The notes beneath the pieces are model-generated. The model had not been told where the DNA came from, searched no databases, and was given only the letters and a program-made list of their open reading frames with translations. The translations under genes were made by a program, and so were the position numbers. A stretch of DNA of 64,000 nucleotides from contig CAZDIP010000001.1 in assembly GCA_964505635.1 (NCBI GenBank), forward strand, positions 222,412 through 286,411, read 5' to 3'. The DNA is from an uncultured Candidatus Saccharibacteria bacterium. GTDB lineage: Bacteria > Patescibacteriota > Doudnabacteria > UBA920. Position 1 is the first letter of the stretch, and each line of letters begins with the position of its first letter. This document shows positions 4,002 through 31,450 of this stretch, in pieces.

Positions 4002-5381
4002 TTATTCTGCCTGGCTCGCTGCCTGCATGACTGCTTGCGGGGAAACATCAAAAGTTTTATCCAAATTTTTAAAGGAAGTTTTATCCTGTTCAAAATATAA
4101 ATCCACCTGACCCGTAGGTCCATTTCTGTGTTTTTTTACGTGAATTTCCGCAATATTAGGACGGCGGCTGTCTTTGCCTTTATACATGTCCTCGCGGTAA
4201 ATAAACATAACAACATCTGCGTCCTGTTCAATAGAGCCAGACTCACGAAGGTCGGAAAGTTGAGGTACTTTATCGGGACGGTTTTCCACCCCGCGCGACA
4301 GCTGGGAAAGCGCCAAAACAGGAACATTTAATTCACGGGCCAAAATTTTCAAACTTCGAGAAATTTCAGAGACTTCCTGGACGCGGTTGTCAGTATTATG
4401 GCCTTCCATAAGCTGCAAATAATCAACTACAATTAGCCCCACATTATGCTCCGACTGCAGACGTCTGGCTTTGGTTCTTACTTCCATTATATTACTGCCG
4501 GCTGAGTCATCTATAAAAATTGGCGCTTCTGACAATTGCCCCATGGCTTCGCCGATTTTTTCAAAATCCTCATCGTTTAAATGGCCGGTACGTATTTTCC
4601 ACAAATTAACGTCGCTCTGTGAGGATAAAAGACGATCAACCAACTGGTCTTTGCTCATTTCCAAAGAAAAAATGCCAACCGGAATTTTTAAATTTACCCC
4701 AATATGGCGCATTATATCCAAAGCCAGGCTGGTTTTGCCCATGGAAGGACGCGCAGCCAAAACTATTAAATCGGATTTTTGCATGCCGCCAAGCAAGTTG
4801 TCCATATCAATATAGCCGGTTGACACGCCCCTCAAACTGCCCTTGTCTCTATGTAGTTCGTCTATCCTTTCAAAAGTGGAATGGAGGATTGTAGAAATTG
4901 AAATGAAATTCTGTTTTAAATGCTTTTGCGAAACACCAAATAATTTTTGTTCCGCTGCATCCAAAATATTTTCCACTTCACCCTCTTCCTTATAAGCCAG
5001 GCTGCTGATTTCCCCGGCGGTTTGTATAAGCCTTCTTAAACTGCCTTTCTTTCTTACAATAAAAGCGTAATGGACGACATTATTAGCCGAGGGCACCATA
5101 TTTACCAACTGGGTCAAATAGCTGCTGCCGCCAATAGTTTCCAAAAGTTTCTTTTCTTCAAGCAGGTTCGTAACGGTTAAAATGTCTATGGGGGTATTTT
5201 TTGAAAAAAGTTCAACTGCCGTTTCGTAAATCAGCTTATGCCTATGGTCATAAAAGTCATCTGCTGAGATTACGTCGGCAATTTTTATAATTGCGTCCCT
5301 ATCTAGCATAACGCAGCCCAAAACCGACATTTCTGCTTCGTTGTTTTGAGGAGGAACTCTCTGAACTGTAGAATTATCCAT
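4002..5381 (-). CDS. dnaB: Replicative DNA helicase DnaB
   Basis: It has an N-terminal DnaB domain, Walker A ARPSMGKTSLAL and the GLIVVDYLQLM and SQLSR motifs. The length is normal, so no intein. Confidence 0.9.
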   Translation of the reverse strand: MDNSTVQRVPPQNNEAEMSVLGCVMLDRDAIIKIADVISADDFYDHRHKLIYETAVELFSKNTPIDILTVTNLLEEKKLLETIGGSSYLTQLVNMVPSANNVVHYAFIVRKKGSLRRLIQTAGEISSLAYKEEGEVENILDAAEQKLFGVSQKHLKQNFISISTILHSTFERIDELHRDKGSLRGVSTGYIDMDNLLGGMQKSDLIVLAARPSMGKTSLALDIMRHIGVNLKIPVGIFSLEMSKDQLVDRLLSSQSDVNLWKIRTGHLNDEDFEKIGEAMGQLSEAPIFIDDSAGSNIMEVRTKARRLQSEHNVGLIVVDYLQLMEGHNTDNRVQEVSEISRSLKILARELNVPVLALSQLSRGVENRPDKVPQLSDLRESGSIEQDADVVMFIYREDMYKGKDSRRPNIAEIHVKKHRNGPTGQVDLYFEQDKTSFKNLDKTFDVSPQAVMQAASQAE

Positions 5382-24082: not shown

Positions 24083-24796
24083 ATGAAAGATATAAGTCTT
24101 TTAGACTTGCTCAAAAGCGGCGCGCATTTCGGCCATACCACTTCCAGATGGAATCCGAAAATGAAACCCTATATTTTTACTACTCGCAACAACATACATA
24201 TTCTGGACTTGGAAAAAACCCGTATCTGCCTTTTAAAAGCCATGGAGTTTGCAAAACAACTTAGCTCCAAAGGCGGCAGCGTTTTGTTTGTAGGCACTAA
24301 AAAACAGACCAAAGAGATAATAAAACAGGCTGCTTTAAACTCAAATAGCCCGTTCGTAAATGTCCGTTGGCTCGGAGGAACTTTTACCAACTTTAGGACC
24401 ATTCAAAAAACCATAAGGAAATTAGAACGTCTGGAAAATTTAAAAGCCTCGGGTGACTTAGAAAGCCGCTACACTAAAAAAGAAGCCTTAATGATAATAA
24501 GAGAGATAGAAAAACTAAAAAAGCTTTTTGAAGGCATACAAAACATGAAAAAATTGCCGGAAGCCATTTTTGTAACCGATGTCAAACATGATTCAATAGC
24601 CGTTAAAGAAGCTAAAAAAAGCGGGGTAAAAATCATAGGCATAGTAGATAGCAATTCCAGCCCCGAATATGTTGATTACCCAATACCCTGCAACGACGAC
24701 GCAACAAAAGCCATTGAACTTTTGAGCAACGCTATGTCAGAAGCCGTTACCGAAGGTAATCAAACCCAAGTGGTCGTAAAAGAAGAAACCAAATAA
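24083..24796 (+). CDS. rpsB: 30S ribosomal protein S2
   Basis: It shows full-length S2 similarity (GAHFGH, rpsB-tsf gene order). Confidence 0.9.
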   Translation: MKDISLLDLLKSGAHFGHTTSRWNPKMKPYIFTTRNNIHILDLEKTRICLLKAMEFAKQLSSKGGSVLFVGTKKQTKEIIKQAALNSNSPFVNVRWLGGTFTNFRTIQKTIRKLERLENLKASGDLESRYTKKEALMIIREIEKLKKLFEGIQNMKKLPEAIFVTDVKHDSIAVKEAKKSGVKIIGIVDSNSSPEYVDYPIPCNDDATKAIELLSNAMSEAVTEGNQTQVVVKEETK

Positions 24797-24828
24797 TTAA
24801 GGAGCTTGTATTTTAATTAAATAAACAT

Positions 24829-25422
24829 ATGTCTAACGATATTTTAAAAGAGATTCGGGAACTAACAGGGGCCGGGATTCTGGAAATAAAAAACGCCCTA
24901 AGCGAAAGCGGGCAAAATAAAGAAAAGGCGATTGAGCTTTTAAGAAAAAAAGGCGCGCTAAAAGCCGGAAAAAAAGCCGACAGGGTAGCCAAAGAGGGGA
25001 TTGTGGAAAGTTATATTCACCCCGGCGGAAGAGTTGGCGTGTTGCTGGAATTAAATTGCGAAACTGACTTTGTGGCCAGAACTGACGATTTTAAACAGCT
25101 TGCCAAAGACCTAGTCATTCATATTGCGGCTGCTAACCCGATTTATGTCCAAATTTCTGACGTTCCGGCTGAAGTCATAGAAAAAGAGAAAGAAATTTAT
25201 AAAGAACAAGCCAAGGCTGACGGCAAAGCTAAATCTGATGATATAATAAATAAAATGCTGGAAGGCAAGATTGCCAAATATTACGAAGAAGCCTGTTTAA
25301 TGGAGCAACCTTTCGTAAAAAACCCGGATATAAAAGTTAAAGACCTGCTTGCCCAGGCCATTTCTAAAACCGGAGAAAATTTGGTTGTTAAAAGATTTGC
25401 GAGATTTATCTTGGGTAACTAA
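24829..25422 (+). CDS. tsf: Elongation factor Ts (short form)
   Basis: It has the UBA-like N-terminus LRELTGAGILEIKNAL and lies downstream of rpsB. Confidence 0.85.
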   Translation: MSNDILKEIRELTGAGILEIKNALSESGQNKEKAIELLRKKGALKAGKKADRVAKEGIVESYIHPGGRVGVLLELNCETDFVARTDDFKQLAKDLVIHIAAANPIYVQISDVPAEVIEKEKEIYKEQAKADGKAKSDDIINKMLEGKIAKYYEEACLMEQPFVKNPDIKVKDLLAQAISKTGENLVVKRFARFILGN

Positions 25423-25484
25423 AAACAATTAACAAATAACTACCGCCCTTTTAGGGCTATAAGTTATTGGCCTTAGGTTGACGC

Positions 25485-26294
25485 TTGAGTTATCAAATGC
25501 TGCCAAATCTTATATTTCTGTTTTCAATTCTGGGAATTATCCTTCTGATTTTAAGGCGCTTGCCTCAAGCCGATAAAATTAACGAGCCAGAAACAGTAAC
25601 GCCCGAAAAACTCCTGTTCGCCAAGGGTTTGCCTGCCGAAGCCATCTCTAAAACCAAGGGTGCCATAAAATTATGGCTGAAAAAAATTTGGAATTTTATT
25701 TTAGAAGCAAAAGACCTAAAGCCTGCTAACCCCGTTGGGTATAGAATCAAGCAAATTTTCCACGCAAGCCGACCGGTCAAGCAACACAAGACAGATATAA
25801 GCCTTACCCAACCACAACAACAGGCACCTAGGCAAGATGAGGCATATTTTTTTGAACTGATAAAAACCCAGCCTAAAAATTTATCCAACTATAACTTGCT
25901 TGGAAAATATTATCTGGAAAATCAAAATTTTGCCGATGGTAAAGACATATACTTATACTTAAGCAACCACGAGCCCACGAATCCTGAATACTTGGGCAGG
26001 TTAGCATACAGCTGTTACAAGCTTGGGCAGTACGAACAAGCAGCGGATTACTATTCTAAATCTTTGGCTCTTGATTCAATCCAGCCAAACCGCTATTATA
26101 ACTTGGGTATTTGCATGCAGCATTTGGACAAAAACCAGGAAGCGATTGAGCCGTTTTATAAAGCCCTAGAACTGGATCCCCAAAACCCAAAATTTATAAA
26201 TACCCTGGCTAAAGCTTATGAAAAAATGAGTGAAAACGACAAAGCAGAAAAACTTTTTTTAAAGCTCAGGCAAATACAAACAAGTGAAGAATAA
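25485..26294 (+). CDS. TPR-repeat protein with N-terminal TM anchor
   Basis: It has an N-terminal hydrophobic helix and several TPR-like repeats (YYNLGICMQ, FYKALELDP). Confidence 0.5.
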   Translation: MSYQMLPNLIFLFSILGIILLILRRLPQADKINEPETVTPEKLLFAKGLPAEAISKTKGAIKLWLKKIWNFILEAKDLKPANPVGYRIKQIFHASRPVKQHKTDISLTQPQQQAPRQDEAYFFELIKTQPKNLSNYNLLGKYYLENQNFADGKDIYLYLSNHEPTNPEYLGRLAYSCYKLGQYEQAADYYSKSLALDSIQPNRYYNLGICMQHLDKNQEAIEPFYKALELDPQNPKFINTLAKAYEKMSENDKAEKLFLKLRQIQTSEE

Positions 26295-26315
26295 ATAAAC
26301 CCGCCAACTTTTGGT

Positions 26316-26391
26316 GCCGATGTAGCTCAGCTGGTAGAGCATCTCCATGGTAAGGAGAAGGTCTCCGGTTCAATCCCGGACATCGGCTCCA
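26316..26391 (+). tRNA. tRNA-Thr (GGU), CCA encoded
   Basis: A canonical cloverleaf: acceptor GCCGATG/CATCGGC, anticodon loop ATGGTAA, T-loop TTCAATC. An 8-bp long-range inverted repeat flanks it (cccgccaa 26301 / ttggcggg 26397). Confidence 0.9.
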
Positions 26392-26471
26392 GAAAATTGG
26401 CGGGTTTTTGTTTTTGTTGTATAATTCATTCATACGGCTCGCATGCCAAATAAACTTTAATTTTATAAAAT

Positions 26472-26990
26472 ATGGAGAATAATGATTTATTTCATAAAAA
26501 ATATTTGGGTGAATTCGTATACGGCGCAATGGACGGCACAGTTACGACTTTTGCCGTTGTGGCTGGCTCCATAGGCGCTTCTTTAAGCCCGACTATTGTT
26601 TTAATTTTAGGTTTTGCGAACCTTTTCGCGGACGGCTTTTCCATGGCCGCTTCCAACTACCTTTCTACTCAATCAAAAAACGATCTGCAAAACATTCAGG
26701 AAGAAAGTCCAATAAAAACCGCTCTGGCAACTTTTGTTTCTTTTATAACAGTAGGTTTTATACCTTTGTTTTCATTTGTAGTGTCGGCTACTAACTCAAA
26801 TACTGACAAGTGGACATTTAAACTTTCCATAATTTTAACCGGTGTTGCTTTTTTGCTAATAGGATTTGTGAAAGGTAAAGTCTCCGGCCGAGGGCCGGTT
26901 CGTTCCGCTTTGGAAACGCTTTTAATTGGCATGCTCGCGGCAAGCATAGCCTATGGCGTTGGAGTTTACCTTAGAATGCTTGTTGGGTAG
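26472..26990 (+). CDS. VIT1/CCC1-family (DUF125) membrane protein, putative Fe/Mn transporter
   Basis: It has the GAMDG motif and several TM segments. Confidence 0.6.
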
Positions 26991-26994
26991 TCAT

Positions 26995-27038
26995 ATTACC
27001 AAAATTAAAATACCGCAATGCTTGCGGTATTTTAATTT
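26995..27038. terminator. Bidirectional hairpin terminator (VIT gene / tRNA-Tyr)
   Basis: The stem taccgcaa/ttgcggta is flanked by A and T runs. Confidence 0.55.
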
Positions 27039-27123
27039 TGGTGGGCGGTGCAGGACTCGAACCTGCGAAGCCGTAAGGCACCTGATTTACAGTCAGGTGT
27101 AATTGCCGCTATACGAACCGCCC
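27039..27123 (-). tRNA. tRNA-Tyr (GUA), type II with long variable arm, CCA encoded
   Basis: The reverse complement gives acceptor GGGCGGT/ACCGCCC, anticodon loop CTGTAAA, a 14-nt variable arm and T-loop TTCGAGT. Confidence 0.85.
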
Positions 27124-27926
27124 ATACTTGTAAATTTTTTAAGTCTCTCTTCGTGTTTTTTGTTCTTAAAACCTATCTCGGTGATATATTTATTTATGTC
27201 CGATTTTCTGGTTAAGTATACACTATGTACACTAATTTTGGAAGGGCTGAAGTTTAGGTTTAAAAATGCCTGTCTAACATCCGCGAGCAGAAGTTTTGAA
27301 AGGTTGGAAAAAGAAATTTGTACCCCTTTATGCATTTTATAGACCGATCCGTCCGTATCGATTAAACCCCTTAAAACAGATTTTAAATATACTTTCCTCT
27401 TAAAAATCCAGGCAGGTATTTTAACCTGTGATTTGGTTTTATTATGAGCCATCCCTTGCCCTAAAAGCCATTTAACCGCTACTGAAGAGCCAAAATACAC
27501 AACTTGGTCGCCCCTTTTAGTGATAATTGTTTTTGGCTTTGAATTAAATACCTTTTTCATTAATTCTGAAACATGCGGGGCATACTTATCTTTTGTGCCT
27601 AACGTAACCGTGACTTGGGTTTTAGTAATATGACCGTCTCCTAAAATTATGCCTATTAATTCAGCTAAATCGCCGGAATATTTTTTTGGCAAAATAATAT
27701 TTTTATTTATATTATTATATCCGGCTTTTTTATCACGTAAAGTTTTTATATTTAGCCTAACTAATCTGTCATAAACGCTATTCTCTGCTAAGTCTAATAT
27801 TTTTGCAATCTCGTTTATGGCTTTATTTTGTTTGACATATAGAAATACAAGCTGTTGCTTGTTTTTTAAACATTCTTGTCTTGTCCATTTTCTGGCCATA
27901 TTTAGATAATATGTAAAAATTGACAT
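27093..27926 (-). CDS. LAGLIDADG homing endonuclease with N-terminal HTH domain (free-standing)
   Basis: It has two LAGLIDADG motifs (LIGIILGDGHI, LRGLIDTDGSV) and an N-terminal HTH (AINEIAKILDLAENSVYDRL). The 3' end overlaps the first 31 nt of tRNA-Tyr. Confidence 0.75.
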   Translation of the reverse strand: MSIFTYYLNMARKWTRQECLKNKQQLVFLYVKQNKAINEIAKILDLAENSVYDRLVRLNIKTLRDKKAGYNNINKNIILPKKYSGDLAELIGIILGDGHITKTQVTVTLGTKDKYAPHVSELMKKVFNSKPKTIITKRGDQVVYFGSSVAVKWLLGQGMAHNKTKSQVKIPAWIFKRKVYLKSVLRGLIDTDGSVYKMHKGVQISFSNLSKLLLADVRQAFLNLNFSPSKISVHSVYLTRKSDINKYITEIGFKNKKHEERLKKFTSMGGSYSGNYT

Positions 27927-28077
27927 TTCGTCAAATTTTTAATTAACCACTTCGGTATATTAATATCTTTCCTCTACTGACTCGTTTTGCATACAAAGAA
28001 AGCCATCCTGCCTAAAGTCCAGAGTGTGTTAAATTTTCTACAAAATATTATCTCTTACATTCTAAATCCTAAATTTT

Positions 28078-29334
28078 TTACGTTCCTTCCTGCCATGAGG
28101 CCAAATACTTTTTTTGCGCCGGGGTGAGTTCGTCTATTTTTATGTTCATAGCCACAAGCTTTAACCTTGAAACTTTCTCGTCAATTTCTTTGGGCACATC
28201 GTGCACTTTACCTTTTTCAAGTTCTTGATGATGCTTAGCCAGCCATTCGCACATTAAGGCCTGGTCGGCAAAACTTAAATCCATAACAGCGCTTGGGTGG
28301 CCTTCGGCTGCGGCCAAGTTCATTAAACGGCCTTCGCCAATAAGATAGATCTTTCGTCCATCTTTCACGGAGTATTCATGAAGATTAGGCCTTACTTCCT
28401 TATCGCTTGTCGCTAATCGCTCTAAATCTTTCTGATTTATTTCCACATTAAAATGCCCGCTATTGCCTAAAATAGCCCCGTCTTTCATAACAGCCATATG
28501 CTCTTTTACAATTACGTCCTTATTGCCCGTGACTGTAATAAAGACATCGCCCAAGCGCGCGGCTTTAAGCATTGGCATAACTTCAAAACCATCCATGGCA
28601 GCCTGGAGAGCGGGGAGAGGGTCAATTTCTGTTACTATAACTTTTGCGCCCATACCTTTAGCCCTTAAAGCAATGCCTTTTCCGCAATAACCATAACCAG
28701 CCACAACCACAGTCTTGCCGGCAAGTAAAATATTGGTTGCCCTAAATAAGCTGTCTAAGGTAGACTGGCCGGTACCGTAATAGTTGTCGAACATGTGCTT
28801 AGTCGGCGTGTCGTTTATTGCTACTACCGGAAATTTTAATTTACCGTCTTTAGCCATAGCTTTAAGGCGTATAACTCCGGTGGTAGTCTCTTCCTGGCCG
28901 GAAAAAATTTCTTTAAGCTGGCTTTTGCGTTCTTTATGAAGGACAGAAATTAAGTCCGCGCCGTCGTCTACTATAATTTGCGGGTGGAAGTTTAAAACCT
29001 TGTTCACGCACCAATAGTATTTTTCATCGCTAATGCCGCGCCAGGCAAAAACGTTTATGCCTTCTTCAGCCAAAGCCGCGGCTACATCGTCCTGGGTGGA
29101 AAGGGGATTAGAACCGCATAGCGCGACTATAGCGCCGCCTGCTTTTAGAGCTTTCATTAACACCGCGGTTTCTTTGGTTACATGCAAACAACAGGCAATT
29201 GTCAGGCCTTTGAAAGGCTGCTCTTTAGCAAATTCTTTTTTTACAATTTCTAAAACCGGCATTTCTTTTTCTGCAAGCGCGATTTTCATTTTACCCTGCT
29301 TGGCAAGAGAAGGATCTTTTACTTTAGATGACAT
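28078..29334 (-). CDS. ahcY: Adenosylhomocysteinase
   Basis: It shows full-length SAHH similarity, with an NAD-binding GxGxxG (VVAGYGYCGKG) and conserved catalytic segments. Confidence 0.9.
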   Translation of the reverse strand: MSSKVKDPSLAKQGKMKIALAEKEMPVLEIVKKEFAKEQPFKGLTIACCLHVTKETAVLMKALKAGGAIVALCGSNPLSTQDDVAAALAEEGINVFAWRGISDEKYYWCVNKVLNFHPQIIVDDGADLISVLHKERKSQLKEIFSGQEETTTGVIRLKAMAKDGKLKFPVVAINDTPTKHMFDNYYGTGQSTLDSLFRATNILLAGKTVVVAGYGYCGKGIALRAKGMGAKVIVTEIDPLPALQAAMDGFEVMPMLKAARLGDVFITVTGNKDVIVKEHMAVMKDGAILGNSGHFNVEINQKDLERLATSDKEVRPNLHEYSVKDGRKIYLIGEGRLMNLAAAEGHPSAVMDLSFADQALMCEWLAKHHQELEKGKVHDVPKEIDEKVSRLKLVAMNIKIDELTPAQKKYLASWQEGT

Positions 29335-29337
29335 AAA

Positions 29338-30378
29338 TTATATTTTACTATTTTTTAATGCTTGTAAATATTCTTGGGTTATACCTGGGCACAACATTCT
29401 AATTAGTGAAAAAGTTTTTTCTTCATACTCCGCCCAATCAGCCTGTTTAACTGCCGTCTGAGGCGCAGATAAAAATTCAGAAGCTTTTTTTAGCCAGACG
29501 TCATAGGGCCTCATGTAGGCCTCTTTGTCATACCACCCAAAAATACCTTCTTTACGCAAGGCTGACAGACTTAGCAAAGCAACATCCACGTTTTTTAATT
29601 CCAGCCCTTCCGCCCCCTGGCTATTGTTTGCCAAGTATACCAGACCCTTTGTTTTTTTAACATCTAGCCGGTCGGTAGGCGGCTGCCAAACTAAATAGGA
29701 AACAGACTCGCTTTTTACCGCCCCGGGATTTGTGGCAGTATTTTCGTACAGAGAATCTACAAGAATCAATTCGACGTCTTTTAAAAGATGACGGCTAACA
29801 GCTTCGGGGTACTTAAAAAGGCTATCCTTTATATCCCGCGCCCCGTCACGCAAAGCTTTAATTCCGCTAATAGGTTTAACAACGAAACTTCGACCGCTCT
29901 TTTCTTCCTTATAGGAATTCCCGGGTCTGGGAATAAGCATATCCACGCCAAACTGATTGACCAAGACCTCTGTCTCCCTTCTGACGGTTTCGTTCCACTT
30001 TTGAGAGGCTTCCATGTCTCTGCCGTAATCTAAAGCAAATTTCAAACCAGAACCGGCCGCCAAAGAAGCTGCGCCGGCAGCCAAACCTGACGCAAATCTC
30101 CTACGGTTTACCGGATTGCGTGAATGTTCTTCCGATTTTACTTCGGCAATTTGATTAGATCTTAAAAGCAAGCGCTCGGACTGCTCTGGGGTAAGACTGC
30201 CGCGGTTAGATTCAACAAATTTTTTAAAACGCCCTCTAACCTTTGACTCTATAAGCTTTCCGGATGTTGCTTTTAATATGTTGCCCAAATAATCAGACTG
30301 CGGCTTAGTGCTTGGATTTGCTTTTTTTGGCAAGTCTTCATCTGGCTCTTCATCAAGTTGATATATTTTTTCAGACAT
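29338..30378 (-). CDS. Hypothetical protein
   Basis: A 346-aa protein with an internal RRRFASGLAAGAASLAAG stretch and no recognised domain. Confidence 0.35.
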   Translation of the reverse strand: MSEKIYQLDEEPDEDLPKKANPSTKPQSDYLGNILKATSGKLIESKVRGRFKKFVESNRGSLTPEQSERLLLRSNQIAEVKSEEHSRNPVNRRRFASGLAAGAASLAAGSGLKFALDYGRDMEASQKWNETVRRETEVLVNQFGVDMLIPRPGNSYKEEKSGRSFVVKPISGIKALRDGARDIKDSLFKYPEAVSRHLLKDVELILVDSLYENTATNPGAVKSESVSYLVWQPPTDRLDVKKTKGLVYLANNSQGAEGLELKNVDVALLSLSALRKEGIFGWYDKEAYMRPYDVWLKKASEFLSAPQTAVKQADWAEYEEKTFSLIRMLCPGITQEYLQALKNSKI

Positions 30379-30566
30379 AAATACTTAATAAATATAGCAT
30401 TTTTCATGCGAAAAACCAATTTTACACATAAATAGATATATTGATTTATATTATACTTTATGTTAAAATATTCAAAGTAAGCTTTCATATTTGCCTGCAT
30501 TAGCTTCCGCCAAAGCGGACAGGCATCCGGTAGGAAAAAGGTTTTGTTCGCCCCGTCACTTTTCTG

Positions 30567-30756
30567 GCCAGCTTAGCTCATCTGGTAGAGCAACGGTTTT
30601 ACCTGCCCGCCAGTCGCCGAGTGCCGATGTAGCTCAGTTGGTAGAGCAACGGTTTTGTAAACCGTAGGTCGTCGGTTCAAACCCGACCATCGGCTCCAGG
30701 CGATCGGCAGGCGGGTAAACCGTAGGTGGCCGGTTCGAGTCCGGCAGCTGGCTCCA
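30567..30756 (+). tRNA. Split/intron-containing tRNA-Thr-like gene (outer), reconstructed anticodon UGU, CCA encoded
   Basis: Acceptor GCCAGCT (30567-73) / AGCTGGC (30746-52); D-arm 30576-91; anticodon stem ACGGT (30593-97) / ACCGT (30719-23); T-arm GCCGG-TTCGAGT-CCGGC (30729-45). A 114-nt insertion at 30601-30714 lies between anticodon positions 34 and 35. Joining the two parts restores the loop TTT|GTAA. Confidence 0.6.
30623..30698 (+). tRNA. tRNA-Thr (UGU), intact, nested inside the outer tRNA's insertion, CCA encoded
   Basis: Acceptor GCCGATG/CATCGGC, D-arm GCTCAGTTGGTAGAGC, anticodon loop TTTGTAA, T-arm GTCGG-TTCAAAC-CCGAC. Confidence 0.9.
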
Positions 30757-30889
30757 CTGCTTCGTCCGCCTAAGGCGGACTACGCAGTGCAAGCACATCG
30801 TTTTAAAGGATCAAGCGATGTAAATAAGACTGCCTGACGCCCAGGCAATCTGTACTAATCACTATTCACTAACAACTAATCGCTAGAAT

Positions 30890-31057
30890 ATGTCTCAAGA
30901 TCATTTACTTAACATGGAGTGCTCGGTTTGCCACAATATTAATTACCAAACCAAGCGCAACAAAAAAAGTTTGGGCGCGCAAAACAAAAAGCGCCTTGAA
31001 TTGCAAAAATATTGTAAGCACTGCAAAAAAAAGACTTTACACAAGGAAACGAAATAG
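30890..31057 (+). CDS. rpmG: 50S ribosomal protein L33
   Basis: A 55-aa ORF below the ORF-track cutoff. It has the pattern CSVCHNINYQTKRNKK...LELQKYCKHCKKKTLHKETK (C4 zinc ribbon, KNK, LELKKYC..TLH.E.K). Confidence 0.8.
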   Translation: MSQDHLLNMECSVCHNINYQTKRNKKSLGAQNKKRLELQKYCKHCKKKTLHKETK

Positions 31058-31133
31058 TTTAACTAATGACCGATAATTAATAACTTATAACTGGTTGCTT
31101 GTTATAAATTATAAGTTATCGGTTTATTACTTG

Positions 31134-31158
31134 GGGGGCGTCGTATAATGGTAGTATC
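31134..31158 (+). other. 5' tRNA-like fragment (acceptor strand + D-arm), near-duplicate of the tRNA-Trp 5' end
   Basis: GGGGGCG-TC-GTATAATGGTAGTAT matches the Trp sequence GGGGGGT-TC-GTATAACGGTAGTAC. Its acceptor strand GGGGGCG is complementary to CGCCCCT at 31408-14. Confidence 0.5.
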
Positions 31159-31241
31159 CGCCGACGCTAAAGCTGTAGCGGACAAGCAGCGGTCTCCGCC
31201 CCGCCTTTACAAACTTAAATATTATCTCCACGGCATCTGGT

Positions 31242-31315
31242 GGGGGGTTCGTATAACGGTAGTACAATGGTCTCCAAAACCATTTGCGAGGGTTCGACTC
31301 CTTCACCCCCTGCCA
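31242..31315 (+). tRNA. tRNA-Trp (CCA), CCA encoded
   Basis: Acceptor GGGGGGT/ACCCCCT (1G-72U), 3-bp D-stem, anticodon stem ATGGT/ACCAT with loop CTCCAAA, T-arm GAGGG-TTCGACT-CCTTC. Confidence 0.85.
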
Positions 31316-31390: not shown

Positions 31391-31418
31391 GGGGGTTCAA
31401 TTCCTACCGCCCCTGCCA
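31391..31418 (+). other. 3' tRNA-like fragment (T-arm + acceptor 3' strand + discriminator + CCA)
   Basis: GGGGG-TTCAATT-CCTAC-CGCCCCT-G-CCA, with one T-stem mismatch. It pairs with the 5' fragment at 31135-41. Confidence 0.5.
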
Positions 31419-31420
31419 AA

Positions 31421-31450
31421 AAAGTCCCGCTTAGCTGCGGGTCTTTTTTG
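31421..31450. terminator. Rho-independent terminator closing the rpmG-tRNA cluster
   Basis: An A-run, then stem cccgc/gcggg with loop ttagct, then a T6 tract. Confidence 0.6.

Follow-up and report, generated by a model that had tools for sequence, protein, structure and literature searches.

LAGLIDADG homing endonucleases cleave double-stranded DNA at specific sites and leave 4-nt 3' overhangs, and to our knowledge homing endonucleases are thought to persist in essential genes only by way of introns or inteins, or in phages between genes. The present analysis concerns a gene of the LAGLIDADG class in a stretch of 64,000 nucleotides from an uncultured Candidatus Saccharibacteria bacterium (GenBank assembly GCA_964505635.1, contig CAZDIP010000001.1, positions 222,412 to 286,411 of the forward strand; this whole stretch is referred to below as the window). 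The gene lies outside any recognisable intron or intein and ends inside the 5' part of a tRNA-Tyr(GUA) gene on the same strand, and it is likely to belong to a homing endonuclease cassette that is free-standing and has the tRNA-Tyr gene as its home. The enzyme class and its selfish logic are known; the location, the duplication of a tRNA segment and the shared transcript are, as far as could be found, new, as no description of a free-standing LAGLIDADG gene joined to tRNA-Tyr was found in the full-text open-access literature.

The described enzymes nearest in structure are I-DmoI, I-Tsp061I, PI-PfuI, PI-SceI and the Tli VMA intein domains, which have in common with the window's protein the fold, the two LAGLIDADG helices that end in an acidic residue and the single-chain pseudo-dimer, although sequence identity is just 17-20%. 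Those enzymes sit in introns or inteins, where splicing restores the host gene, whereas the window's enzyme is free-standing, has an extra N-terminal helix-turn-helix (HTH) domain, and would leave its host gene whole through duplication of a gene segment. A second point of comparison is WhiA, a conserved transcription factor that combines a LAGLIDADG scaffold with a C-terminal HTH and has lost the catalytic residues. The window's family resembles WhiA in scaffold and HTH, and the two match structurally, but the family carries its HTH at the N-terminus, retains invariant catalytic aspartates and is patchily distributed.

Three further systems are instructive with respect to genomic setting. In fungal mitochondria, free-standing LAGLIDADG open reading frames (ORFs), such as that of Allomyces atp6, insert at the end of a gene, bring a replacement end and leave a relic. 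The likeness lies in the intron-less invasion of a conserved gene by carrying a substitute segment; the difference is that the Allomyces type replaces the 3' ends of organellar protein genes, whereas the window's element would replace the 5' part of a bacterial tRNA and take over its transcription. I-TevI, an intron-encoded GIY-YIG enzyme, is autorepressed through a sequence at its own promoter that resembles half of its homing site, and the D-arm-like motif at -54 to -9, by the endonuclease's own promoter, is a putative operator that invites a comparison by analogy. The phage T4 enzyme SegB, a free-standing GIY-YIG endonuclease encoded in a tRNA gene cluster, promotes inheritance of the adjacent tRNA region. 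It is like the window's enzyme in being encoded by a free-standing gene among tRNA genes, but it belongs to another nuclease family and to a phage genome, lies between genes rather than being fused to one, and shows no duplicated tRNA fragment. SegB is mentioned in PMC13096335, and the group I introns found in tRNA genes of Patescibacteria are reported to bear few endonucleases, all of them HNH enzymes (PMC13011429). Within the candidate phyla radiation, LAGLIDADG enzymes are encoded in rRNA insertion sequences, mostly as single-domain homodimers in group-I-like insertions of 16S and 23S genes, and one of them, I-ShaI, has been characterised (PMC11270868). The window's enzyme shares with the I-ShaI type the host group, the superfamily and the choice of highly conserved RNA genes as targets; unlike that type, it has two LAGLIDADG domains and an HTH, lies outside an intron and is tied to tRNA-Tyr.

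The endonuclease gene and its junction with tRNA-Tyr

An initial annotation, made from the sequence letters, had described an ORF with two LAGLIDADG motifs and an N-terminal HTH that stands free of introns and inteins and ends 31 nt inside tRNA-Tyr(GUA). This description is correct (Table 1), with one amendment to the start codon; its interpretation is in part supported, and the regularity of the arrangement across related genomes was understated. The profile search that it had proposed gave a significant match of the ORF to Pfam LAGLIDADG_3 (PF14528), in two stretches, with a score of 47.8 bits where the cut-off is 22.5 (E = 1.8e-12). The NCBIfam matches are exclusively to intein-containing proteins and are confined to their endonuclease parts, and the LAGLIDADG_WhiA profile reaches 21.3 bits, under its cut-off of 23.2; a sequence search of PDB chains with the endonuclease returned no match. 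An AlphaFold2 model computed from 48 homologues (predicted local distance difference test score, pLDDT, 91; predicted template modelling score, pTM, 0.80) has three helices forming a unit at the N-terminus and, after it in the same chain, two alpha-beta-beta-alpha-beta-beta-alpha halves. The top Foldseek matches of this model are intein endonuclease domains, I-Tsp061I and I-DmoI (probability 1.0 for all these), and WhiA and the LAGLIDADG maturases bI3 and I-AniI are also among the matches.

In the model and in an alignment of 48 family sequences, both LAGLIDADG helices end in an acidic residue (LGD97G and TD192G). Mean column identity of that alignment is 53%, and both catalytic aspartates are invariant, as are L87, E89, G92, L95, G96 and G98 in motif 1 and G187, D190, T191, G193 and S194 in motif 2. 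The ORF's own HTH profile matches are weak (HTH_40, HTH_7 and Sigma70_r4_2, E 0.02-0.1); precomputed HTH Pfam matches are present on its homologues, the three helices are modelled at residues 16-32, 37-44 and 48-57 with pLDDT above 88, and W14, L26, Y30, N34 and R54 are invariant in this region. Sequence and model thus characterise the protein, by prediction, as an intact double-motif LAGLIDADG nuclease with an N-terminal HTH, and neither of the defects that would have spoken against such an enzyme, a disrupted ORF or missing catalytic residues, was found. The GC content of the gene is 32.7%, against a mean of 39.5% for the other ORFs of the window (z = -2.0).

Table 1. Features of the endonuclease locus, with positions numbered from the first letter of the window
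Feature	Position	Strand	Evidence or detail
Endonuclease ORF, uninterrupted	27093..27926	minus	277 amino acids; mechanical ORF
Endonuclease coding sequence, likely start ATG 27899 (M10)	27093..27899	minus	268 amino acids; start set by alignment of the family and by the promoter
N-terminal helix-turn-helix domain, ORF residues 16-57	27756..27881	minus	AlphaFold2, weak profile matches, invariant residues
LAGLIDADG motif 1, LAELIGIILGDG, L87-G98, catalytic D97	27633..27668	minus	C-terminal end of helix 85-97
LAGLIDADG motif 2, LRGLIDTDG, L185-G193, catalytic D192	27348..27374	minus	End of helix 178-192
tRNA-Tyr(GUA), class II tRNA	27039..27123	minus	ARAGORN; Rfam 57.7 bits
Overlap of ORF tail and tRNA-Tyr 5' end, 31 nt	27093..27123	minus	ORF, ARAGORN and Rfam calls
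Sigma-70-like promoter: TTGACG (27934-27929), 17 nt spacer, TATTAT (27911-27906)	27906..27934	minus	10/12 consensus matches
tRNA-Tyr D-arm-like fragment, TACCGAAGTGGTTAATT	27941..27957	minus	Matches tRNA-Tyr positions 8-22
Cassette left edge, approximate	27958..27985	minus	Similarity to closest relative (L247) begins here
Terminator hairpin and U-rich tail, directly after tRNA-Tyr	27000..27040	minus	Free energy -22.9 kcal/mol, z = -8.7

At the junction, the TGA stop codon of the endonuclease (27095-27093) coincides with tRNA positions 29-31, and the final nine residues of the protein, GGSYSGNYT, are translated tRNA-Tyr sequence. The family to which the gene belongs comprises more than 450 clusters at 90% identity in a protein search; among the best 120 of these, the proteins are 232-298 amino acids long (mostly about 260), about 50% identical to the query, and derived from Patescibacteria wherever a source is named. 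Three genome contexts from different lineages, one of them with entirely different neighbours, show the gene just ahead of tRNA-Tyr(GUA) and overlapping with it. Scanning GTDB at one genome per species then supplied 80 more loci from various Patescibacteria groups, out of at least 380 matches, and the junctions were surveyed with a script combining tblastn and ARAGORN on 80 non-redundant loci with a tRNA-Tyr call. Whether homologues sit beside tRNA-Tyr in related genomes, a question raised by the initial annotation, has a uniform answer: all 80 loci have the gene directly next to tRNA-Tyr and on its strand. Overlap of ORF and tRNA is seen in 64 of them and amounts to 6-39 nt, apart from one outlier that reads through for 151 nt; in the remaining 16 the stop codon of the ORF lies 0-17 nt ahead of the tRNA. 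The overlap seen in the window is not due to chance, since it recurs in so many related loci.

The stop codons used by the family are a TAG at tRNA positions 13-15, a TGA at positions 29-31, and a TAA formed by anticodon bases 35-36 and A37, and the distance from the final conserved arginine codon to tRNA position +1 ranges from 10 to 47 nt (median 21.5). The stop codons thus fall in each of the three reading frames, which means that the tail is not under selection for its protein sequence, and to judge from these loci the conserved feature is the juxtaposition of gene and tRNA itself. A common gene order is tRNA-Thr(UGU), endonuclease, tRNA-Tyr, tRNA-Thr(GGU), L33 and tRNA-Trp, and in many loci all neighbours have been rearranged and the endonuclease-tRNA-Tyr pair alone has been kept together.

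The gene probably starts at ATG 27899 (MARKW...), because the family alignment begins at M10 and a promoter-like site ends 6 nt 5' of this codon. A TAnnnT hexamer is found 5-9 nt ahead of the ATG in 61 of 74 family loci, at exactly 6 nt in 45 of them, and a Shine-Dalgarno-like motif in just 4 of the 74; the closeness of the -10 box to the start codon and the rarity of Shine-Dalgarno-like motifs together suggest that the endonuclease mRNA is leaderless. The flank ahead of the ATG has a mean promoter score of 8.53 of 12 and scores of at least 10 in 29% of loci. No promoter signal was detected between ORF and tRNA, as the last 70 nt of the ORFs score 7.06 against 6.76 of 12 within ORFs. Downstream of the tRNA, none of 200 shuffled sequences folds as well as the terminator hairpin, which, by its position, can also be used by the convergent gene at 26472..26990. 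The simplest reading of these signals is that the leaderless endonuclease mRNA and tRNA-Tyr probably form a single transcript. Rfam at a relaxed threshold (E <= 0.1) found four tRNAs only between 26200 and 31700, with no intron or other RNA, and none at the gathering threshold either, as regards introns. An intron- or intein-encoded endonuclease was rejected on these grounds, as there is no Rfam intron, no intein flanks are present and the gene has its own promoter and start codon.

A displaced tRNA-Tyr fragment and the proposed cassette

Upstream of the promoter, the window holds a short sequence that matches part of a tRNA-Tyr. Alignment of 50-nt flanks revealed a motif such as AGAGTGGTCAATTGCA 10-60 nt upstream of the start codons of the family, and by its sequence this motif is the D-arm of a tRNA-Tyr, that is, a displaced 5' piece of the gene. 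In two loci the correspondence is exact, the flank being tRNA-Tyr positions 1-25 in L025 and positions 1-26 in L048. The similarity between fragment and tRNA always stops near position 22-29, and the median alignment score is 25 as against 18 for shuffled sequences. With looser criteria, the motif is found 81 times in 771 kb, with 43 occurrences in family flanks, 18 in annotated tRNAs and 20 elsewhere, and tRNA-Tyr is the sole tRNA type found to carry it. The possibility that the upstream motif is a general promoter element was rejected, as the motif is confined to the family flank and to tRNA-Tyr. The fragment is likewise absent from all 27 of the endonuclease-less tRNA-Tyr loci checked. Fragments of the tRNA-Tyr 3' part were sought downstream of the functional tRNA and none were found, and the insertion of a whole gene that would leave both old halves behind was rejected for tRNA-Tyr for this reason.

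The fragment differs from the 5' part of the tRNA gene that it now accompanies. Among 36 loci with a clear fragment, none matches the 5' part of its own tRNA (median score 12 against the locus's own tRNA, and 24 against the best tRNA in the library). Comparison of the window with its closest relative, L247, whose protein is 85% and whose ORF is 81% identical, shows where conservation is concentrated. Over the fragment and the -35 box (27957-27928) the two loci are identical at 30 of 30 positions and in the tRNA part at 38 of 38, and identity is 54% in the promoter spacer. Identity is 38% upstream of 28000, which is the random level, 56% over 27958-27999 and 100% from 27957, and beyond about 27985 the upstream flanks of the two loci are unrelated. 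The fragment is consequently part of a conserved unit and is more constrained than the coding sequence, given 30 of 30 identical positions against 81% identity in the ORF.

The unit would thus comprise, in order, the displaced D-arm-like fragment, a promoter, the leaderless endonuclease ORF, a complete tRNA-Tyr gene and a terminator. The cassette would have entered the tRNA-Tyr gene near position 26/27, between the D-arm and the anticodon arm, and by carrying a replacement 5' segment it would keep the essential tRNA-Tyr whole, which would be the reason why the ORF runs into the tRNA. Given that the replacement D-arm differs from the displaced one, an occupied allele would resist cutting; the enzyme would cut tRNA-Tyr alleles that lack the cassette, and repair would copy the cassette in, co-converting part or all of the tRNA. 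From then on tRNA-Tyr would be transcribed from the endonuclease promoter, and this capture would protect the element, because the host could neither silence nor crudely delete the gene. Cleavage by RNase P at the tRNA 5' end would free the tRNA and, in the 64 overlapping cases, remove the stop codon of the ORF, so that the enzyme might be kept at a low level through ribosome rescue. The D-arm-like fragment at the promoter may in addition act as an operator for autorepression, as in I-TevI.

Empty sites, decayed copies and inheritance

A selfish element of this kind should be missing from some genomes and in decay in others. Empty sites were sought by scanning metagenome contigs with a tRNA-Tyr D-arm pattern, independently of the endonuclease, and picking Patescibacteria loci by their neighbouring proteins; the pattern itself is unspecific, most of the at least 120 matches being other bacteria or phage tRNA arrays. 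Two loci, L141 and L193, share 86% ClpB identity with the occupied locus L050 and are empty, the ClpB stop codon lying 7 and 92 nt from tRNA-Tyr; a third, L126, with a ClpB 80% identical to that of L050, is empty as well. Further pairs of occupied and empty loci are L062 and L147, and L060 and L132. In L101, L120 and L198, tRNA-Thr(UGU) is followed after 1-34 nt by tRNA-Tyr with no endonuclease gene, and L091 likewise lacks the gene. The comparison of strains with and without the gene, proposed in the initial annotation as a way to define the insertion boundaries, could be made for L050: its tRNA and those of the empty relatives are nearly identical, and similarity resumes about 5 nt or less from the tRNA 5' end.

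These empty sites bear on the idea that the element homed long ago, is now immobile and is retained as the sole promoter of an essential single-copy tRNA-Tyr, so that deletions would be lethal. The position of the promoter upstream of the ORF, the want of a promoter signal between ORF and tRNA, and a junction that is tight or overlapping in all loci would all be expected of such a stranded element. Promoter capture, however, guards the DNA and not the reading frame or the active site, and yet the residues for catalysis and DNA contact do not vary and the majority of ORFs are intact; moreover, clean empty sites in close relatives indicate that the gene can be gained or lost. Loss of mobility in the past is accordingly an improbable account of the family, and a homing cassette fits these observations better.

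Decayed copies were found in several forms. In five copies (L051, L082, L084, L086 and L087) the N-terminal end is missing, and with it the HTH or the first LAGLIDADG domain, and the copy in L162 is internally deleted and frameshifted and still abuts tRNA-Tyr. The latter, on a groundwater contig (L162 1-1794), is preceded by Tsf, TPR and a D-arm-like fragment; the decayed endonuclease is followed by a tRNA-Tyr of the standard D-arm type, a 214 nt spacer, tRNA-Thr(UGU) and, after a 2-nt gap, a second and different tRNA-Tyr. From its layout, this locus looks like an acquired endonuclease-tRNA-Tyr module that is decaying beside the resident gene. The initial annotation had seen in the endonuclease a driver or footprint of tRNA gene mobility and replacement. 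This suggestion gains partial support, for tRNA-Tyr, from the displaced 5' fragment and from the decayed copy with its extra tRNA-Tyr in L162.

A different view would be that the tRNA operon has an old host factor in this protein, passed on vertically and no longer mobile, such as a DNA-binding regulator of the WhiA kind; its place beside tRNA-Tyr would then be due to regulation. The family does retain about 50% identity across very diverse Patescibacteria with most copies intact, the gene order S2-Tsf-TPR-tRNA-Thr-gene-tRNA-Tyr-tRNA-Thr-L33-tRNA-Trp is often preserved, the protein co-diverges in part with Tsf and S2, WhiA is among the structural matches, and the strongly conserved motif at the promoter would fit a binding site. 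Pairwise-identity comparisons gave Spearman coefficients between the endonuclease and single markers of -0.02 (ClpB), 0.30 (Tsf) and 0.28 (S2), as against 0.37-0.64 between pairs of markers; the corresponding Mantel tests are noisy, owing to a star-like phylogeny, and these endonuclease-marker correlations are supportive only. The lack of co-divergence with markers on the ClpB side sits less well with vertical inheritance, as does the pair L081 and L010, in which S2 is 72% identical and the endonucleases merely 43%. A domesticated factor would also not be expected to be missing from close relatives, to exist in truncated and frameshifted copies or to share its site with other ORF families, and the catalytic aspartate pair that is invariant here is lost in WhiA. 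Patchy presence, decayed copies, site sharing and a weaker agreement with the markers are the marks expected of a homing endonuclease and therefore argue against an essential domesticated factor, which we regard as unlikely.

Several findings nevertheless weigh against a mobile cassette. Full-length copies are present in 82 of 88 loci, which is above the expectation for simple invasion and decay, part of this excess being explained by locus sampling that favoured intact motifs. Some vertical signal exists (Tsf 0.30, S2 0.28), and synteny is frequently kept. A scan of viral contigs yielded no close relatives, but distant partial ones only, with at most 36-42% identity over fragments, and thus no sign of a phage vector. 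Within the L050 clade, the D-arm is of a single type in occupied and empty alleles alike, and the fragment for this reason probably travels with the cassette rather than being remade at each insertion. Finally, some occupied loci, such as L016, have a functional tRNA with a fragment-like D-arm, which leaves the D-arm difference unproven as the basis of immunity.

Related families and other tRNA arrangements

The association with tRNA genes extends beyond the family of the window. The family profile also matches hundreds of proteins of 320-350 amino acids with a longer N-terminus, from Omnitrophota. In this sister family, which likewise has an HTH and a double LAGLIDADG domain, five of five contexts (L242-L246) adjoin tRNA-Ser genes, and in four of the five the gene is directly upstream of the tRNA, with anticodons CGA, GCU, GGA and GCU and with junctions from a 58-nt gap to a 9-nt overlap. 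In L242, the sister ORF reads through a degraded tRNA 3' end and a tRNA-Ser(UGA) lies upstream. No tRNA fragments above shuffled controls were found upstream of the Omnitrophota genes.

In bacteria, Tyr and Ser tRNAs are both of class II, and it might be supposed from the company of the two families that the protein acts on RNA, as a maturase-like factor that assists folding or processing of class II tRNA precursors and is for this reason co-transcribed with them; the LAGLIDADG maturases bI3 and I-AniI are indeed among the structural matches. Most bacteria, however, and many Patescibacteria mature tRNA-Tyr without such a protein, the DNA-type HTH and the intact metal-binding aspartates point to DNA cleavage, and between 26200 and 31700 Rfam found no RNA structure beyond tRNA. 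A role as an RNA helper is thus highly improbable.

A second ORF family, of about 200-225 amino acids, has an N-terminal HTH and the conserved motifs LYW(A/C)EG.K, (F/V)NSDP and (F/Y)WS, and beyond the HTH no Pfam match was found for it. Members lie directly upstream of tRNA-Trp in L011 (6378-7028), L030 (2933-3583) and L062 (4038-4700), further members upstream of tRNA-Trp are those of L074 (1512-2189), L080 (7808-8476) and L066 (9285-9946), and others lie ahead of tRNA-Tyr in three metagenome loci (L142 108-764, L166 592-1227 and L170 ~4420-5040). The ends of these ORFs lie at -38 to +8 nt relative to the tRNA, many tRNA-Trp loci are without such an ORF, and in L166 the ORF ends with the same tRNA-encoded tail as the endonuclease. 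Upstream of this second family, too, no tRNA fragments above shuffled controls were found, whether at tRNA-Trp or at tRNA-Tyr.

It is quite possible, and is put forward here tentatively, that these arrangements represent a distinct lifestyle of homing endonucleases, in which the gene is fused to the 5' end of an essential tRNA, supplies a substitute 5' segment, takes over the promoter and relies on RNase P in the role that splicing plays elsewhere. Related families would follow this lifestyle at tRNA-Tyr in Patescibacteria and at tRNA-Ser in Omnitrophota, and an unrelated HTH-ORF family at tRNA-Trp and tRNA-Tyr; taken together, these families could drive the replacement of tRNA genes in ultrasmall bacteria quite generally, and the split, nested tRNA relics of the window may be among the results. 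If this is true, duplication of a tRNA segment combined with promoter capture would give homing endonucleases a third way into a core gene of bacteria. The unusual variants of tRNA-Tyr and the relics of tRNA genes in Patescibacteria would then be accounted for, and genomes as small as these would be seen to put up with a selfish nuclease, in active form, at an essential tRNA present in one copy. For annotation it would follow that ORFs running into tRNA genes at such loci are real, and for enzyme engineering the family would offer natural compact single-chain nucleases with an HTH and predictable tRNA gene targets. It would also raise the matter of how translation, RNase P and transfer-messenger RNA interact on an mRNA that has its stop codon within a tRNA.

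With respect to the surroundings of the pair, the endonuclease and tRNA-Tyr are inverted relative to the flanking tRNA-Thr genes in the window (24083-31315) and in L001, and in both, Thr(GGU) and Thr(UGU) have changed places with respect to L004-type loci. Around the pair, the window has inserts consisting of a VIT1-like gene (26472-26990), an AhcY-like gene (28078-29334) and an ORF of 346 amino acids; an exact-match look-up of the neighbouring 172-amino-acid protein of the window gave no match. Elsewhere, a locus titled 'uncultured Gammaproteobacteria' (L069) has the typical Patescibacteria layout of tRNA-Thr, endonuclease, tRNA-Tyr, tRNA-Thr and tRNA-Trp, and one titled 'Nanoarchaeia archaeon' (L086) shows a partial match that has no tRNA in its vicinity; the two may reflect either mislabelling of bins or real transfer. 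A paralogue of 191 amino acids with a double LAGLIDADG domain and no HTH, 27% identical to the query, is encoded away from tRNA genes in L033 (8404-8979, minus strand).

The two nested-tRNA loci that the initial annotation had placed 3 kb away are real, but contain no endonuclease ORF. In the first, an intact tRNA-Thr(UGU) at 30623-30698 lies between tRNA-like halves at 30563-30600 and 30716-30766 (acceptor GCCAGCT...AGCTGGC), with no ORF and no Rfam intron at the locus; joined in silico, the halves give a valid cloverleaf, for example that of Thr(GGU). In the second, tRNA-Trp (31242-31315) is enclosed, as judged by eye, by tRNA-like halves that begin with GGGGGGCGTCGTATAATGGTAG... (~31133-31175) and end with ...GGGGGTTCAATTCCTACCGCCCCTGCCA (~31393-31427), and trial joins of these halves produced a few weak tRNA calls.

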